The notes below the pieces were generated by a model. The model worked only from the letters and a program-made list of their open reading frames with translations. It was not told the DNA's origin and searched no databases. This document shows, one piece after another, positions 5,192 to 45,025 of a stretch of DNA of 64,000 bases (within the stretch, counting starts at the first letter, position 1; every line of letters begins with the position of its first letter). Source of the stretch: a phage; the sequence record NC_100371.1. One strand, 5' to 3'. The translations under genes were made by a program, and so were the position numbers.

Positions 5192-5268
5192 TGGTCTCCA
5201 CGGAGTGATTCGAACACTCGACCTCCTGATCCCAAATCAGGCGCTCTACCAAGCTGAGCTACGCGGAG
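5192..5268 (-). tRNA. tRNA-Pro (anticodon UGG)
   Basis: Hand-folded cloverleaf: 7-bp acceptor stem, GTTCGAAT T-loop, anticodon loop TTTGGGA, encoded CCA. Confidence 0.75.
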
Positions 5269-5279
5269 TATTTATTATT

Positions 5280-5354
5280 TGGTGGCCCTGGGTGGAATTG
5301 AACCACCGTCTGGCGATTATGAGTCGCTTGCTTGAACCTTCCAGCTACAGGGCC
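5280..5354 (-). tRNA. tRNA-Met (anticodon CAU; could be initiator or Ile-lysidine type)
   Basis: Acceptor GGCCCTG/CAGGGCC, T-arm GGTGGTTCAATTCCACC, anticodon loop CTCATAA, encoded CCA. Confidence 0.7.
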
Positions 5355-5355
5355 A

Positions 5356-5431
5356 TGGTGCTGATGGCAGGACTTGAACCTGCAACCTATTGATTACAAA
5401 TCAATTGCACTGCCAATTGTGCTACATCAGC
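5356..5431 (-). tRNA. tRNA-Thr (anticodon UGU)
   Basis: Perfect 7-bp acceptor stem, D-stem GCAC/GTGC, anticodon loop TTTGTAA, T-arm GCAGGTTCAAGTCCTGC, CCA. Confidence 0.75.
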
Positions 5432-5435
5432 AAAA

Positions 5436-5534
5436 GGTGCTAGGTGATGGAATCGAACCATCTATGTATTCAACGACTACCTCGTCTATTTTCAGGATTA
5501 AAAATCCTCGCCCTTGCCAAAGGGCTTACCTAGC
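5436..5534 (-). tRNA. atypical tRNA-like gene (long variable region; anticodon not assignable by eye)
   Basis: Perfect acceptor pairing GCTAGGT/ACCTAGC and canonical T-arm GATGGTTCGATTCCATC, but about 99 nt long with an unusual anticodon-arm region (AGGAT-TTTTA-ATCCT); no complete encoded CCA. Confidence 0.4.
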
Positions 5535-5632
5535 TCAGCATGTTGACCATGTTGCTAGTCGGCGATGACGACTGTAACATTTGATAATCCGGTTCTGCTT
5601 CCGGCTTTCGCTTAATTACAAGGTCAACAATA

Positions 5633-5723
5633 TGGCAGAGGATAATGGAATCGAACCATCATCGAGTCATCCTCAACGGGACGGTTTTCAAGACCGCTTG
5701 AGCACCATTGCTCCCTACCCTCT
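5633..5723 (-). tRNA. tRNA-Ser (anticodon UGA), type II
   Basis: Acceptor AGAGGGT/ATCCTCT, anticodon loop CTTGAAA, long variable arm, T-arm GATGGTTCGATTCCATT, CCA. Confidence 0.7.
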
Positions 5724-5837: not shown

Positions 5838-5925
5838 TGGTGGTGAGTGATGGAGTCGAACCACCCGAATCGCAATGATAACAGATTTACAGTCTGCCCC
5901 GCTACCCCTACGGAATTAACTCACC
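5838..5925 (-). tRNA. tRNA-Tyr (anticodon GUA), type II
   Basis: Acceptor GGTGAGT/ACTCACC, anticodon loop CTGTAAA, long variable arm, CCA. Confidence 0.7.
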
Positions 5926-6055
5926 TAAATACTAATATTTAAATTCTTTTTAAAATAGCTAGTGTTCTAACCACTAACTATGAGGTATCGGTAAAGTGGT
6001 TACCGCCACTTGCCGAAGATTTACTCTGCTAAAGTAAGCTACATTAAAAAGAACT

Positions 6056-6130
6056 TGGCACCCCGTACTGGACTCGAACCAGTGTCAACGGCTTAGAAGG
6101 CCGCTGCTTTATCCACTAAGCTAACAGGGC
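6056..6130 (-). tRNA. tRNA-Arg (anticodon UCU)
   Basis: Acceptor GCCCTGT/ACGGGGT, anticodon loop CTTCTAA, T-arm ACTGGTTCGAGTCCAGT, CCA. Confidence 0.75.
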
Positions 6131-8668: not shown

Positions 8669-9019
8669 CTAACCAGTTGTTGACATTCGAATAACTTCTT
8701 CTGGTGGCAAAACTTTGGAAAATGTGCATCTTTTACCTCTCCCTTGTGTGGATATTTCAACCACTCCTGCACATTCTAAAGTTTTAACGCACGCTGCTGC
8801 TTTTGTTTTCTTTATCCCAACATCTGCTGCAATTTTCCTGGTGCTGGGTGTGAAGCGTGAATTTTCTCCAAGCTTATACCAGTTGTGCAGGTAGCAGTAT
8901 ACGATCTTGTCATATAAGTCAAGAACAATAACCTCCCCAGTTGTGCCATTCAAAACTTTTGACATAGACAGTATTTCAAGGGGGACTTTAAGATATAGCA
9001 GCTTATCCCCATCTTTCAT
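8669..9019 (-). CDS. hypothetical protein, possible helix-turn-helix DNA-binding protein
   Basis: 116 aa; segment RKIAADVGIKKTKAAACVKTLECAGVV looks HTH-like; lies next to the operator array. Confidence 0.4.
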   Translation of the reverse strand: MKDGDKLLYLKVPLEILSMSKVLNGTTGEVIVLDLYDKIVYCYLHNWYKLGENSRFTPSTRKIAADVGIKKTKAAACVKTLECAGVVEISTQGRGKRCTFSKVLPPEEVIRMSTTG

Positions 9020-9066: not shown

Positions 9067-9621
9067 TTACTCCCCGCTGTCAATAGCAAGACTCATTGCA
9101 ATACGGTATGCCTCTTCTAATGGTAAGAGTCTCCCCCACACATCCCAACCGACATCAAACTGCCTGCCAAACAACTGCTGTGTGGTTCCGTGAGCATGAC
9201 CGAACAGTTGGACTGATCCGTGAGGCTTTCTGTTCCACTTTGCAAACTGGTAATGGCTCATACAGATCAAATTCTTGTTGTGGCGAAGCTCGTAATAATC
9301 TACAACCTCATGACCGAACTCTTTCATAATTCTGACAGTCGTCCTTGTGTCATGGTTACCACGAACAAGAATAATATGTCCGTTCAACATATTTAGAACA
9401 TCTGGAAGCAATTTGTTGATATTCTTATCATTAGTGCACGCAATATCCCCCAAGTGAAACACAGTGTCTGCAGGTGACACAACAGAGTTCCACTTGGTGA
9501 TGATTCCCGCATTCATACTGTCAAGATTGTGATCATACTGAGATCTGTGTTTTTGACATGAGTCGAACTCCATTACCCGCTGGTGGAGAAAGTGTGTGTC
9601 GCTTGTTACAAAGTATTTCAT
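9067..9621 (-). CDS. calcineurin-like metallophosphoesterase
   Basis: MKYFVTSDTHF...GDIACTNDK...VRGNHDT motifs. Confidence 0.6.
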   Translation of the reverse strand: MKYFVTSDTHFLHQRVMEFDSCQKHRSQYDHNLDSMNAGIITKWNSVVSPADTVFHLGDIACTNDKNINKLLPDVLNMLNGHIILVRGNHDTRTTVRIMKEFGHEVVDYYELRHNKNLICMSHYQFAKWNRKPHGSVQLFGHAHGTTQQLFGRQFDVGWDVWGRLLPLEEAYRIAMSLAIDSGE

Positions 9622-9628
9622 ACATTCC

Positions 9629-10039
9629 TCATTTAAGTTTAATGCAGTTTTTAAGCTGGCGTTCCATACGATCCACAACCCTGTCTGGAACATCATGAAT
9701 GCTTTTATTACCATGGCGGTTTTCAACCACGATCACGGTATAACTATATCCATGACTGATCGCCATGTCAATATATTCTTGCACATATTTTTCTTTTGTA
9801 AACGTATTACTTACCACGATACGGTCGTAGCCCATACGCATCATATCTTCTACGTTATCTTTGCACCATTTTGCTGCAAGTGTTACTTTACTTGCATCCC
9901 AATTGTAATTGCCGTCATCGTCGTACCAGAACATATCGTTCTCAAAATGTGGATACAGACCTTCTAAAGATAGCGCATTTGCCAGTGTTGATTTGCCAGA
10001 CCCTGGTAGACCACGCACGATATATAGCATTTTAGACAT
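9629..10039 (-). CDS. P-loop kinase, polynucleotide-kinase-like
   Basis: ATG at 10039 with GGAGAG RBS; Walker A GLPGSGKST; about 136 aa. Confidence 0.55.
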   Translation of the reverse strand: MSKMLYIVRGLPGSGKSTLANALSLEGLYPHFENDMFWYDDDGNYNWDASKVTLAAKWCKDNVEDMMRMGYDRIVVSNTFTKEKYVQEYIDMAISHGYSYTVIVVENRHGNKSIHDVPDRVVDRMERQLKNCIKLK

Positions 10040-10139
10040 AGTAACTCTCCGTTTTAATTTTAATGATAGTATACCTAACTGTTTTGTTAATTTCAAGTGT
10101 TGACACCAGGTTATTTGTGTGGCAGAATAAAGGGACAAA

Positions 10140-11075
10140 ATGACAAATGAGGAATGTATGATGAAGTATTTTAATGCAGACGACCTGGTTGACAAAGGTC
10201 TTGTAACCAGCAGATATTACCCAGATCTTGGATTAAAGATCTACAAATATGCCAGAAAAGTATTCTACAACAATTTATGGCATTTGTCTCCGCGTTTACT
10301 AGAGTGCCGAGGCATTGTTGTCGGTAATGAAGGAAATGTTGTGGCATGGCCCTTCACAAAAGTGTTTAATTTGGGAGAAAACTCCACCAACCTGCCTGAC
10401 AATAAACTTGTGACGGCGGTAGAGAAAAAGAACGGATTCCTTGGTGTGGTATCATCTCATAAAGGTGAACTATTGTTTTCAACAACCGGGTCTCTTGATT
10501 CTCCATATTGTAACCTTGCAAAGGAAACCATCCAGGAGCAATGTGGTAATTTAGATCTTATCAAGAAGGTTATGGGCCATGAAAACATGACATTCATGTT
10601 TGAAATTTGTCACCCTTCAGATCCGCATATTGTTCAGGAAGATCATGGCGCATATTTGATAGGTTGCAGATATAATGATTCTGGAATAATGCTACCAGAA
10701 GCAGCTTTAGATGGGATTGCCAAATACCTTGGTGCAAAACGTCCTCACACTGTGCGTGAAATTCCGTTCAGCTATGCAAAAGAATTAGCTGCAGAAACAA
10801 GGGGTGAAGGGTATATGATCCGTAAGCCTTACTACCCTTATGACCTGCAACTAAAGATCAAGTCTCCCTACTATCTGGCACGGAAGGCCGTAATGAGGTG
10901 TAGAGCTTGGAAGATTTGGGATGATGATATCTTTAAACGTGTTGACGAAGAGTTTTACGGCATGGTAAACTTCATTCGTAGGAACTACACAGAAGATGTG
11001 TGGAATTGCCTCCTGGAGCAGGAACGCCGTGAGATACTTGACTGCTATTTCCACAACGAGGACTATATGCAATGA
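10140..11075 (+). CDS. RNA ligase, T4 Rnl1 (RnlA)-like
   Basis: Blocks LLECRGIVV, KVFNLGEN, EKKNGFLGVV and FSTTGSLDS parallel T4 Rnl1 ECRGIMF / KFFNLNEN / KEDGSLVS / FKSKGSIKS, including the nucleotidyl-transferase lysine. Confidence 0.6.
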   Translation: MTNEECMMKYFNADDLVDKGLVTSRYYPDLGLKIYKYARKVFYNNLWHLSPRLLECRGIVVGNEGNVVAWPFTKVFNLGENSTNLPDNKLVTAVEKKNGFLGVVSSHKGELLFSTTGSLDSPYCNLAKETIQEQCGNLDLIKKVMGHENMTFMFEICHPSDPHIVQEDHGAYLIGCRYNDSGIMLPEAALDGIAKYLGAKRPHTVREIPFSYAKELAAETRGEGYMIRKPYYPYDLQLKIKSPYYLARKAVMRCRAWKIWDDDIFKRVDEEFYGMVNFIRRNYTEDVWNCLLEQERREILDCYFHNEDYMQ

Positions 11076-11422
11076 AGAAGTTGATTGTGTGGCTTGATGA
11101 TTTTAGAGATCCGTCAGATTATGGACTACCAGACGCTCTGTGGCTGAAGAATTCTTCTGAGTTTATGGATTTTCTTAATGATAAGAGAAAGCTCTACAGA
11201 CGCGTATCTGAGTGGTATTTTGACAATGATCTAGGGGAAGTGCTTGAAGGGTACGACTGCTTCTCTGCGCTAGAGGAGAAACTTGTATTCGGAAAGCCAC
11301 CACTTATTGACAACGTGATTATTTTCGTGCATACTTCTAATCCATCGGCAGCTCGTAAATTTATGCTTGCTGCTGACTCATTCAAGAAGTTTGGAATAGA
11401 GATCAAACAAAACATCTACTAA
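11072..11422 (+). CDS. hypothetical protein
   Basis: 116 aa; ATGA overlap with the RNA ligase stop. Confidence 0.45.
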   Translation: MKKLIVWLDDFRDPSDYGLPDALWLKNSSEFMDFLNDKRKLYRRVSEWYFDNDLGEVLEGYDCFSALEEKLVFGKPPLIDNVIIFVHTSNPSAARKFMLAADSFKKFGIEIKQNIY

Positions 11423-11430
11423 GGACATTT

Positions 11431-12192
11431 ATGCGACGACTTATTGTTATTTCTGGTGCTGGCTTGAGCGCAGAATCTGGGATCCCAACTTTTCGTTCTG
11501 GTCAAACTGCAATGTGGGAGAATTTCAGCATCGATGAGGTGTGTAACATCCACACCTTTGCCAAGAACTACTATAAGGTGCATGACTTTTACAATGCACG
11601 GCGTGTAGCTCTGGGCAGTGTTGATCCTAACCTTGCACATCTCCGGATCGCTGAGTGGTATTCACGTTGGTCTGGTCGTGTGATCAACCTGACAACCAAT
11701 GTAGATGATTTGCTGGAGCGTGCTGGTGTTAAACATGAAGATATCTTACATGTCCACGGGTATTTGCCTGAAATCACCTACGAAGATGCTGAAGGTAATG
11801 ATGTAATTAAAAATATCGGATACACGGAGGTAGATACAGGCAAGTATACTTGGGTTAAGCCCAATGTGGTGTTCTTCGGTGAGGTTGCTCCTAAGTATAC
11901 AGACATGTATGACCTATTGACATCTCTTACCAGCAATGATATGGTGATCCTGGTGGGTTGTTCTAACACAGTTATTAATTTTAACTGGGAATTGTTTCCT
12001 GCTACTTGTAAAGGCACAAAACTACTGATTGTAAACAAGTATGATTCGCAGAGTGCAGATGGAAGCGGCATTTCACGTAGCGACCTTTATCAATATGAGG
12101 ATCGCGGGATCCCGGTTTGGTTTAACGGGGCGGTTGATGCTTTCTCTGATAAAACATTCATTGAGACCGTAGAAAACTTTATGGAACTTTAA
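11431..12192 (+). CDS. Sir2-family (sirtuin-like) NAD-dependent protein
   Basis: GAGLSAESGIPTFR, TNVDDL and VHG motifs; no obvious zinc-ribbon cysteines. Confidence 0.55.
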   Translation: MRRLIVISGAGLSAESGIPTFRSGQTAMWENFSIDEVCNIHTFAKNYYKVHDFYNARRVALGSVDPNLAHLRIAEWYSRWSGRVINLTTNVDDLLERAGVKHEDILHVHGYLPEITYEDAEGNDVIKNIGYTEVDTGKYTWVKPNVVFFGEVAPKYTDMYDLLTSLTSNDMVILVGCSNTVINFNWELFPATCKGTKLLIVNKYDSQSADGSGISRSDLYQYEDRGIPVWFNGAVDAFSDKTFIETVENFMEL

Positions 12193-12205: not shown

Positions 12206-12919
12206 ATGCTGAATACCAAATTAATTGACAACCTGGAAAAACTGTCCCAGCCTGAAAACTACCTTTGGTCTGCCAACTGGGTGGAAAACTGGAACCGTGT
12301 AGCAGCTAAAGTGAAAAAATCATACACACCATTCGAACTTCAGCTGAGTTTCATTGAGGAAGAGTTCAATGAGGTTTTGGAAGAGTTGGAGAAAGGTGAT
12401 GGTGGGGATCATCTCCTAAAAGAGGCCTGCGATCTTCATGTTGTCACAAGTTATGCCGCTTATCTTGTTAACGATAACCATGAAAAGTGGTCAAACCTGT
12501 TTGATAATCCGCGAGGTCTTAAGTTTAAGATCGGTGAATTTTATGATACACTGATCGCTGCGAAAAATACCTCTAAGCAAAGAGCGTCTGCTTACCGCTT
12601 AGCAGAGTTGTCAACAGCTTTGCTGTTCCAGCTTCGCGGTGATGTGTGCGGGATGATGCGGAAGGTTCTAAAATCTAATGACAGCAAGTTTGCACGCGTC
12701 AACCATCTGCGGTATTCACACGGTGCCAGTGCAGATATGCCTGCTGAACAACTCATCGAGTTGGAGATTAAAGATCTTGAGCGACGCTTTGATGGTCGCT
12801 ATGAAGGTTTTGTTGCTAAAGAAGAATTCTACAACGGAAATAAAGTTATCATATTCCTTGACAGTAAAGGTAAGATTATGAAGCCTTCAAGCTTCAAAGA
12901 TGTAACAGAATATATTTAA
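12206..12919 (+). CDS. possible MazG-like all-alpha NTP pyrophosphohydrolase
   Basis: EEEFNEVLEELEKGD ... KEACDLHVV resembles the EExxE...ExxD metal-binding pattern; weak call. Confidence 0.35.
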   Translation: MLNTKLIDNLEKLSQPENYLWSANWVENWNRVAAKVKKSYTPFELQLSFIEEEFNEVLEELEKGDGGDHLLKEACDLHVVTSYAAYLVNDNHEKWSNLFDNPRGLKFKIGEFYDTLIAAKNTSKQRASAYRLAELSTALLFQLRGDVCGMMRKVLKSNDSKFARVNHLRYSHGASADMPAEQLIELEIKDLERRFDGRYEGFVAKEEFYNGNKVIIFLDSKGKIMKPSSFKDVTEYI

Positions 12920-12925
12920 TAACAT

Positions 12926-12952
12926 AGCCGGGGCGATCCCGGCTTTACTTGT
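12926..12952 (+). terminator. rho-independent terminator
   Basis: GCCGGGG-CGAT-CCCGGC hairpin followed by a T-rich tail. Confidence 0.5.
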
Positions 12953-12983
12953 TTCGGAAAGTATGCAAGTGAGGTAGAAAGTT

Positions 12984-44856: not shown

Positions 44857-44884
44857 TAGTATAGTGACTAACAAGAGGTGAGGA

Positions 44885-45025
44885 ATGACTGATTTTACTG
44901 AAGCTTTAATGATGGCCTTATCTGTTTTAGCGCTATCGGTGTGTTTTGGGGCGTTATTCACATCTCTAGTTAAAGTTTTACATACCATATTCTCACCCAA
45001 GGAGCACAGTAATGACGAAGATTGA
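44885..45025 (+). CDS. small hydrophobic peptide (46 aa)
   Basis: Strong RBS AAGAGGTGAGGA; hydrophobic core; not in the ORF track (shorter than 60 aa). Confidence 0.4.
   Translation: MTDFTEALMMALSVLALSVCFGALFTSLVKVLHTIFSPKEHSNDED

Follow-up and report, generated by a model that had tools for sequence, protein, structure and literature searches.

A conserved tRNA-like RNA, probably non-decoding, in the tRNA operons of Vequintavirinae phages

What kind of RNA is produced by a gene that is embedded in a tRNA cluster and shaped like a tRNA, yet apparently cannot read codons? This question is raised by positions 5436-5534, on the minus strand, of a stretch of 64,000 nucleotides (nt) of phage DNA (sequence record NC_100371.1; hereinafter, the window). 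The window belongs to a Vequintavirus, an rV5-like coliphage; its tRNA cluster region is 99.8% identical to that of Escherichia phage vB_EcoM_10C2_SA_NWU, and more than 100 other Vequintavirus genomes match the same region at 96-99% identity. The gene encompasses 97 nt up to the discriminator A (5438), followed by CC (5437-5436), for a total of 99 nt. The reading that we favor, with a probability of about 0.55, is that it encodes a conserved, structured, non-decoding mimic of the tRNA body that would be processed together with the tRNA operon. With an anticodon arm not long enough for codon reading, the RNA probably imitates a tRNA without working as one, and covariation, conservation and the geometry of this arm jointly argue against a standard tRNA, an intron-containing tRNA and a decaying pseudogene.

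Written in segments from the 5' end, the minus-strand RNA is GCUAGGU AA GCCC UUUGGCAA GGGC G AGGAU UUUUA AUCCU GAAAAUA GACGA GGUAG UCGUU GAAUACAUA GAUGG UUCGAUU CCAUC ACCUAGC A CC. Its minimum free energy fold is a cloverleaf (-34.8 kcal/mol, z = -4.0), and none of 200 shuffled sequences folds as well. An earlier note on this DNA had pointed to perfect acceptor-stem complementarity, a canonical T arm, a length of about 99 nt, the lack of a complete encoded CCA and an anticodon region without a 5-base-pair (bp) stem and 7-nt loop, and all these features stand: the acceptor stem has 7 of 7 Watson-Crick pairs, the T arm is regular, the anticodon region is the 15-nt AGGAU-UUUUA-AUCCU, and the CC is followed by UUUU, so that the CCA is incomplete, whereas the 6 other tRNAs of the cluster all encode it in full. 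ARAGORN, which that note had proposed as a check, reports an abnormal 'tRNA-??? (atcc)' at exactly 5436-5534, and neither ARAGORN nor Rfam places a standard tRNA at shifted boundaries. The Rfam tRNA model gives the locus 37.5 bits (gathering score 29) at the cost of inserting 26 nt into the variable region and dropping 1 nt from the anticodon stem, compared with 60-77 bits for four neighbors and 39.0 bits for the atypical tRNA-Tyr.

The acceptor stem, the T arm, the D arm and the G19:C56 elbow are all those of a canonical tRNA. The D arm can alternatively be drawn in the tRNA-Sec style, with a 6-bp stem and a 4-nt loop, as in the minimum free energy fold and in an alignment with tRNA-Sec. At the sites of U8 and A14, which form a pair in canonical tRNAs, family alignments have invariant A8 and U14. 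The 31-nt variable region includes an extra hairpin bordered by two purine-rich single strands, GAAAA and AAUACAUAG. In the sequences compared here, the acceptor/T/D half is a normal tRNA body, and the feature with the highest conservation is a junction not seen in ordinary tRNAs. Within the window, AAUACAUAG occurs once and its complement has no other occurrence, so pairing with a target in the manner of a small regulatory RNA was rejected as an explanation of this motif; by eye, there is no consistent complementarity across genera between the anticodon-arm loop and either the junction or the loop of the extra arm.

Homologs were collected by BLAST, two motif scans and one pass with nhmmer and a covariance model, yielding 32 distinct sequences from Vequintavirus, Avunavirus-like phages (Av-05, TH18), Seunavirus (PVP-SE1, 4MG, GAP31, NINP13076), Mydovirus (KB57, Mydo, KPP-1) and several metagenomic contigs of 20-150 kb. 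A covariance model built here (R1) assigns the members 96-125 bits, with 104.7 for the window copy and 33.4 for the best other tRNA in any locus, the family being defined from the same sequences that the model then scores. There is one copy per genome, inside the tRNA cluster, and the window copy has all the traits by which we delimit the family (an R1 score of at least 96 bits, GAAAA together with AAUACAUAG, an arm of 15-16 nt and a single copy in the cluster). The BLAST similarity to Avunavirus-like phages and Seunavirus is confined just inside the ends of the RNA (window positions 5439-5534 and 5443-5530, respectively), with no similarity in its flanks. A weak R1 match at 12864-12955 (plus strand; 18.4 bits, E = 0.043), outside the tRNA cluster, is probably noise. 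An origin from the host was rejected, with no match in 5,426 complete Escherichia coli genomes, and none of the 23 bacterial and archaeal loci recovered by a motif scan of 185,579 species genomes is a family member. An R1 scan of the syntenic tRNA cluster of one Phapecoctavirus, the sole genome of the sister subfamily scanned, did not find the RNA. The scans were seeded with motifs, so very divergent members could have been missed; with this limit, the comparison indicates a new family of tRNA-like RNAs, known to date from Vequintavirinae phages alone. A protein-coding explanation was discarded: only open reading frames (ORFs) of 29-64 amino acids overlap the locus, and the pattern of substitutions is RNA-like.

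The fold is upheld by covariation. In a model-guided alignment of the 32 sequences, which was fitted to the structure, 99.1% of the 666 pair cells hold standard pairs and 12 of the 21 pairs show changes in both partners. The alignment has a covariation score of 0.425, compared with 0.16 in shuffles, none of which (0 of 500) reaches the observed value, and in controls with a slid register only 32-45% of the cells are paired. Covariation is present in all four helices. In the acceptor stem, all 7 pairs are kept in all 32 sequences, 4 of them with double changes, and C2:G71 is invariant; the extra hairpin differs in length and sequence between clades, with compensated changes within clades, for example, from GACGA/UCGUU to GACGG/CCGUU. 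The tertiary contact covaries as well, a sign that selection acts on the elbow too. The elbow pair G19:C56 is replaced by U19:A56 (20 vs 12 sequences, no exceptions), that is, the D loop UUUGGCAA with the T loop UUCGAUU switches to UUUGUCAA with UUAGAUU, and the D loop is otherwise invariant.

The tRNA-like RNA is better conserved than the genuine tRNAs that adjoin it. Between the window and TH18, it is 91.8% identical, whereas the tRNAs for Thr, Arg and Tyr are 68.5%, 72.4% and 75.8% identical, respectively; between the window and GAP31, the values are 66.1% for this RNA and 60.8-63.3% for the neighboring tRNAs. Nevertheless, the gene is accessory rather than essential. In phages V18 (L084) and JES2013 (L085), natural deletions have taken away tRNA-Tyr and tRNA-Ser and have spared just the 3' 25-42 nt of the tRNA-like RNA, leaving tRNA-Arg and tRNA-Thr 97-222 nt apart, which implies that the RNA is dispensable for propagation in the laboratory.

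The anticodon arm of the window copy consists of 15 nt instead of the usual 17 and can form either 5 bp with a 5-nt loop or 4 bp with the 7-nt loop UUUUUAA. The arm is 15-16 nt long in 32 of the 32 members and never 17: it has 15 nt in Vequintavirus, Avunavirus, one Seunavirus (GE_vB_MG) and a metagenome clade, and 16 nt in the remaining Seunavirus members and Mydovirus. Its stem varies by compensated changes (AGGAU/AUCCU, AGGUC/GACCU, GGGCU/AGCCC), and the fifth pair covaries between U-A and C-G, with C.A in three sequences, which implies a loop of 5-6 nt in 29 of the 32 members; the other three have 4 bp and a 7-nt loop with A33. The loops observed (UUUUA, UUAUA, CAUCA, CAUCCA, CAGCCA, CUUCCA, CCGCCA, CCUCCA, CCUCAA, AUCAA) vary between and within genera, without a conserved anticodon, and a 7-nt loop, where imposed, puts A or C at position 33 everywhere except in Vequintavirus and Avunavirus. 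The family accordingly lacks the canonical 5-bp stem and 7-nt loop with U33 and a purine at 37; it also lacks a conserved anticodon consistent with the acceptor identity, the central triplets being UUU, UAU, UCC, GCC, UCA and AUC and the discriminator A, C or U. The 3' end follows the clades, with U73-CCA in Seunavirus, Mydovirus and the metagenome clades (one exception), A73-CC-U in Vequintavirus and C/U73-AC in Avunavirus-like phages. Among the 19 homologs at non-Vequintavirus loci, Rfam RF00005 reports none at its gathering threshold, and the Mydovirus-type copies as well as the L049 copy have no Rfam tRNA match even at E <= 0.01. With an arm 1-2 nt short and a loop that is not conserved, the RNA is probably non-decoding. 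Of the candidates in the earlier note, a type II tRNA with an unusual anticodon arm agrees with the shape, that is, a long extra arm and an abnormal anticodon arm, but not with decoding behavior; a tRNA-like regulatory RNA comes closest to the evidence in its first half, and no target was found that would bear out the second.

How might such an RNA be made and used? It would be transcribed from the minus strand as part of a polycistronic operon, Arg-Tyr-Ser-ODD-Thr-Met-Pro (where ODD is the tRNA-like RNA), likely starting from the promoter-like site upstream of tRNA-Arg (Table 1). RNase P would free the 5' end, and the 3' end would be released by the RNase P cut at the next tRNA, 6 nt downstream, and by exonucleases; the gaps to the adjoining tRNAs are 2-6 nt, and such short spacers imply this kind of processing. 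The mature RNA would end in CCA, which most genera encode and which, in Vequintavirus, the CCA-adding enzyme of the host would complete. The tRNA body would then be offered to tRNA-binding proteins through the elbow, the core and the conserved junction, without codon pairing on the ribosome.

Which proteins these could be is a matter of speculation. An RNA-repair island lies 3.5-6 kb away (Table 1), and in a curated relative its genes are annotated as polynucleotide kinase, phosphoesterase and RNA ligase, which makes a role in a tRNA-centered conflict possible. In phage T4, the equivalent enzymes mend tRNA-Lys that has been cut by an anticodon nuclease. We tentatively suggest that the RNA is a tRNA mimic in the conflict between phage and host over tRNAs, serving either as a decoy or inhibitor of a host tRNA-targeting defense enzyme or as a partner of the phage RNA-repair enzymes. 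A bolder and somewhat more doubtful version casts the mimic as a weapon, in which the RNA would retain the tRNA body (acceptor, elbow, CCA) and gain a conserved junction platform, but would resist cleavage or decoding at the anticodon; it would titrate or inhibit a host tRNA-targeting defense enzyme, or else guide or activate the phage module of Rnl1, kinase and phosphoesterase. If this proves true, it would be an RNA-based anti-defense factor kept across an entire phage subfamily. Phage tRNAs are now seen as counter-measures to anticodon nucleases (PMC10264068); together with the nearby island, this makes the RNA a testable candidate for an anti-defense RNA or a repair cofactor, with V18 and JES2013 as ready-made deletion variants and E. 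coli K-12 as a tractable host.

Several observations weigh against this reading. The RNA-repair ligase is far more widespread than the tRNA-like RNA, being present in Pakpunavirus, Vibrio phages and Phapecoctavirus, and the Phapecoctavirus cluster has no such RNA, so the linkage between the two is only contextual. No protein gene flanking the cluster is common to Vequintavirus and Seunavirus; the flanking ORFs are unrelated, and no protein partner was identified. The covariation counts overstate the number of independent events because most of the 32 sequences fall in a few clades. The literature searched holds no study of the expression, processing, CCA or charging of this RNA. Finally, opening one A-U pair in the Vequintavirus copy gives the loop UUUUUAA together with A73. 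This loop closely resembles that of E. coli tRNA-Lys, and by textbook rules UUU and A73 constitute the full Lys identity set, so that the RNA may have a Lys-decoding or Lys-accepting role in Vequintavirus.

This last point is at the heart of the alternative that survives best, namely, that the RNA is a working decoder with an unusual anticodon arm, a tRNA-Lys(UUU) in Vequintavirus and a reader of Gly codons (UCC/GCC) or of UGA (UCA) elsewhere; its shape might keep it from being cut by host anticodon nucleases that target tRNA-Lys. With a 4-bp stem, the window loop presents U33, UUU and A37 along with A73; GenBank curators have chosen the label tRNA-Lys in the BASEL phages; and the (U/G)CC-A loops of Seunavirus and Mydovirus, combined with U73, G1:C72 and C2:G71, resemble the E. 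coli Gly identity by generally known rules. Phage tRNAs that evade anticodon nucleases are, moreover, documented (PMC10264068). We nevertheless consider a decoder unlikely. The anticodon stem is one base pair short in every member, and in most genera 32:38 would be a Watson-Crick pair (C-G or U-A) that covaries, so that loops of 5-6 nt remain. Outside Vequintavirus and Avunavirus there is no U33, and the closest relatives, the Avunavirus-like phages, have UAU with C73 or U73, which breaks the identity. A8 and U14 replace U8 and A14, and CCA is unencoded in the very clade that is proposed to decode Lys, although the neighboring tRNAs all encode it.

Two further alternatives dispense with the anticodon and are, in our estimate, less probable still. 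One is that the RNA works through its acceptor end, either as an aminoacylated donor of an amino acid off the ribosome or, through its CCA end, as a decoy for toxins modifying the 3' ends of tRNAs. An RNA with a degenerate decoding part, an intact acceptor/elbow half, a perfect acceptor stem with invariant C2:G71, and U73-CCA encoded in all but one of the Seunavirus, Mydovirus and metagenome members would suit such a function, but position 73 is variable (A, C or U), Vequintavirus and Avunavirus have lost CCA, no gene for a transferase-like partner was found, and conservation peaks in the core and the junction rather than at the 3' end. The other, equally improbable, is that the RNA is a mark of punctuation, a tRNA-shaped RNase P substrate that would serve only for cutting the transcript and freeing the neighboring tRNAs or an upstream spacer RNA, much as the mascRNA of MALAT1 does for its own transcript. 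The tight packing with spacers of 2-6 nt, the intact acceptor/T minihelix and elbow (the RNase P determinants) and, in Vequintavirus, the location directly after a conserved 68-nt spacer element are what one would expect of it. The neighboring tRNAs are already RNase P substrates, however, making an extra one unnecessary, the position in the operon differs between genera, and punctuation leaves the invariant GAAAA and AAUACAUAG, the conserved D loop and the maintained extra hairpin unexplained.

The remaining possibilities, a decaying pseudogene, an intron-containing tRNA (the first two also raised by the earlier note) or a frameshift-suppressor tRNA misfolded by the prediction tools, could draw on the 4-base anticodon of ARAGORN, a single GenBank record of tRNA-Stop(tta), the low Rfam tRNA score of 37.5 bits and the loss in two isolates, but are largely refuted by the comparative data and very improbable: compensatory changes in the four helices and the tertiary pair extend across four genera, conservation exceeds that of real tRNAs, the extra 26-36 nt, much shorter than a bacterial group I intron, lie in the variable region, where they form a simple hairpin (15-25 nt) that separates the anticodon arm from the T arm, no Rfam intron family matches, and the stem drawn by ARAGORN is not conserved. 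Specifically, the ARAGORN anticodon 'atcc' was rejected, as it needs an AUUUU/AAAAU stem that is absent in Seunavirus and Mydovirus, where ARAGORN finds nothing.

The coordinates of the RNA, its neighbors and the RNA-repair island are collected in Table 1.

Table 1. Parts of the tRNA-like RNA and other features of the window discussed in the text
Feature	Position	Strand	Remarks
Acceptor stem, 5' strand GCUAGGU	5534-5528	minus	7/7 Watson-Crick with 5445-5439
Positions 8-9 (AA)	5526-5527	minus	alignments A2/A4
D arm GCCC-UUUGGCAA-GGGC	5510-5525	minus	3/4 stem pairs covary
Truncated 'anticodon' arm AGGAU-UUUUA-AUCCU	5508-5494	minus	15 nt; stem covaries
5' junction strand GAAAAUA	5487-5493	minus	GAAAA invariant (32/32); unpaired in all folds
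Extra ('variable') arm hairpin GACGA-GGUAG-UCGUU	5472-5486	minus	hairpin in every member
3' junction strand GAAUACAUA	5463-5471	minus	AAUACAUAG invariant in all 32
T arm GAUGG-UUCGAUU-CCAUC	5462-5446	minus	100% paired; 2 pairs with double changes
Acceptor stem, 3' strand ACCUAGC	5445-5439	minus	pairs with 5534-5528
Discriminator A73 + CC	5436-5438	minus	next base U (UUUU follows)
Sigma-70-like promoter TTGACA-17-TAATAT	6217-6189	minus	consensus match only; upstream of tRNA-Arg
tRNA-Arg(UCU)	6056-6130	minus	ARAGORN/Rfam
tRNA-Tyr(GUA)	5841-5925	minus	Rfam; missed by ARAGORN
tRNA-Ser(UGA)	5633-5723	minus	ARAGORN/Rfam
98-nt spacer, tRNA-Ser(UGA) to tRNA-like RNA	5535-5632	minus	proposed 5' leader removed at G1; contains 68-nt element
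tRNA-Thr(UGU)	5356-5431	minus	ARAGORN/Rfam
tRNA-Met/Ile2(CAU)	5280-5354	minus	ARAGORN/Rfam
tRNA-Pro(UGG)	5192-5268	minus	ARAGORN/Rfam
Helix-turn-helix (HTH) protein	8669-9019	minus	
Metallophosphoesterase	9067-9726	minus	RNA-repair island
P-loop kinase	9629-10195	minus	RNA-repair island
Rnl1-family RNA ligase	10140-11075	plus	RNA-repair island
Cyclic-phosphate-processing REC domain protein (cREC)	11072-11422	plus	RNA-repair island
SIR2-family protein	11431-12192	plus	adjoins RNA-repair island

The slot of the tRNA-like RNA in the operon varies by genus: in one it follows Ser, and elsewhere it follows Thr, Arg or Ile. Several other parts of the cluster are peculiar in their own right. The spacer upstream of the RNA contains a 68-nt element (5550-5617, minus strand), AAUUAAGCGAA.GCCGGAAGCAGAACCGGAU...CGUCAUCGCCG, that shares 87% identity with an unannotated segment of the late leader of phage lambda (approximately 44866-44934), situated between orf-64/tR' and gene S and oriented the same way with respect to transcription. 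Its matches also include the P1-like phages D6 and P7. As in the window, the D6 copy comes immediately after an odd tRNA-Ser(UGA) gene, a homolog of the one described here, and the element gives the impression of a small module able to travel with this tRNA gene or without it. The tRNA-Ser(UGA) itself is atypical: Rfam reports it solely as a sub-threshold match to tRNA-Sec (39.4 bits vs a threshold of 47), and in the rV5 genome paper it was found by ARAGORN alone (PMC3606486). According to the D6 annotators, tRNAscan-SE gives its homolog no amino acid, and in the Phapecoctavirus cluster the homolog is unannotated (L087 17160-17253). The tRNA-Tyr(GUA) has, along with its low Rfam score (39 bits), a 3-nt insertion before the D stem; it is labeled 'tRNA-Pseudo-GTA' in phage APECc02, and the gene is present, unannotated, in Phapecoctavirus anhysbys (L087 17472-17562). 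The gap between tRNA-Arg and tRNA-Tyr is 130 nt (5926-6055), as opposed to 4-7 nt in most Vequintaviruses, which implies an insertion of about 126 bp in this phage and in a few more, among them its closest relatives. The insert holds a string resembling a tRNA D arm, UAGUUAGUGGUUAGAACAC, and is possibly a tRNA remnant. About 20 GenBank records labeled as Campylobacter jejuni phages ('Campylobacter phage'; MG065635, MG065644, MG065647, MG065652-MG065677) are 97-99% identical to E. coli Vequintavirus across both the tRNA cluster region and the RNA ligase gene and are probably mislabeled or contaminant assemblies.

In GenBank, the tRNA-like RNA is unannotated in most records of relatives, is 'tRNA-Lys, codon AAA' in the BASEL phages, and is otherwise labeled 'tRNA-OTHER', 'tRNA-???(atcc)' or, in one record, 'tRNA-Stop(tta)'. 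The discordance of these labels stems from the ambiguous anticodon arm, and the missing annotation is explained by the failure of the Rfam tRNA model, at its gathering threshold, and of ARAGORN to detect the non-Vequintavirus homologs. The rV5 genome paper lists six tRNAs (PMC3606486) and tRNAscan-SE found five in the near-identical O177 phages (PMC10698182), this RNA being among neither set, and we found no description of it in the literature searched. To call it tRNA-Lys or a suppressor tRNA is probably an error, and it skews studies of the tRNA content of phages and of their codon use. The contradictory or missing names extend over more than 100 genomes of rV5-like phages, which are widely isolated, used in phage cocktails and present in reference collections such as BASEL. 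What they conceal is a stand-alone tRNA-shaped RNA that is under tighter selection than the real tRNAs next to it, yet evidently unable to decode.

Among known RNAs, class II tRNAs (Leu, Ser, Tyr) share with this RNA the cloverleaf, the 7-bp acceptor and 5-bp T stems, the elbow formed by G18-G19 and the T loop, the extra hairpin between the anticodon and T arms, the setting in a tRNA operon and, in most members, the encoded CCA. Unlike them, it has an arm of 15-16 rather than 17 nt with an unconserved 5-6-nt loop, A8/U14 in place of U8/A14, and 7 and 9 unpaired nt flanking the extra hairpin where they have 1-2; C2:G71 and, mostly, U73 do not fit the Leu, Ser or Tyr identity. With tRNA-Sec (RF01852), the common features are the long extra arm, a D arm that can be drawn as 6 bp with a 4-nt loop and the UCA loop of several members, whereas the acceptor/T arrangement is 7/5 rather than 8/5, position 73 is U, A or C rather than G, UCA occurs only in a minority and the loop is mostly 5-6 nt. 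A tRNA-Sec or opal suppressor was rejected: tRNA-Sec is the best Rfam match of one member, at 37.6 bits compared with the gathering score of 47, and needs non-standard acceptor pairs. The tRNA-like domain of transfer-messenger RNA (tmRNA) does not fit either, as pair 3:70 is C:G, A:U or U:A instead of G3:U70, a D stem is present and ARAGORN finds no tmRNA at the locus.

Other parallels are with RNAs that do not decode. Phage T4 encodes the stable RNAs C and D (species 1 and 2), small non-tRNA RNAs that are processed with its tRNA cluster; they are akin to the tRNA-like RNA as cluster-encoded small RNAs of no assigned function, although at about 120-140 nt they exceed it in length, and they are not known to have its motifs. 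The mascRNA of MALAT1 is a tRNA-shaped substrate of RNase P whose anticodon loop is small, poorly conserved and without a part in decoding, and in these respects the tRNA-like RNA resembles it; mascRNA, however, is eukaryotic, is linked to 3'-end formation of a long RNA and has neither a long extra arm nor conserved junction strands, and the Rfam mascRNA model has no match on the tRNA-like RNA. YrlA, of the bacterial Y RNAs, is a tRNA-like partner of Ro/Rsr in RNA repair and decay and offers the resemblance of a non-decoding, tRNA-like acceptor/T/D module found in bacteria and some phages and linked to RNA-repair genes (PMC7824862). The YrlA model (RF02553) has no match on 5436-5534, its sole weak match falling on neighboring tRNAs, no Ro/TROVE gene is present in the annotated relative genome, and the tRNA-like RNA has no long Ro-binding helix. 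By analogy, then, the tRNA-like RNA of the Vequintavirinae seems to resemble the non-decoding bacterial Y RNAs and mascRNA in manner, while matching none of their models.

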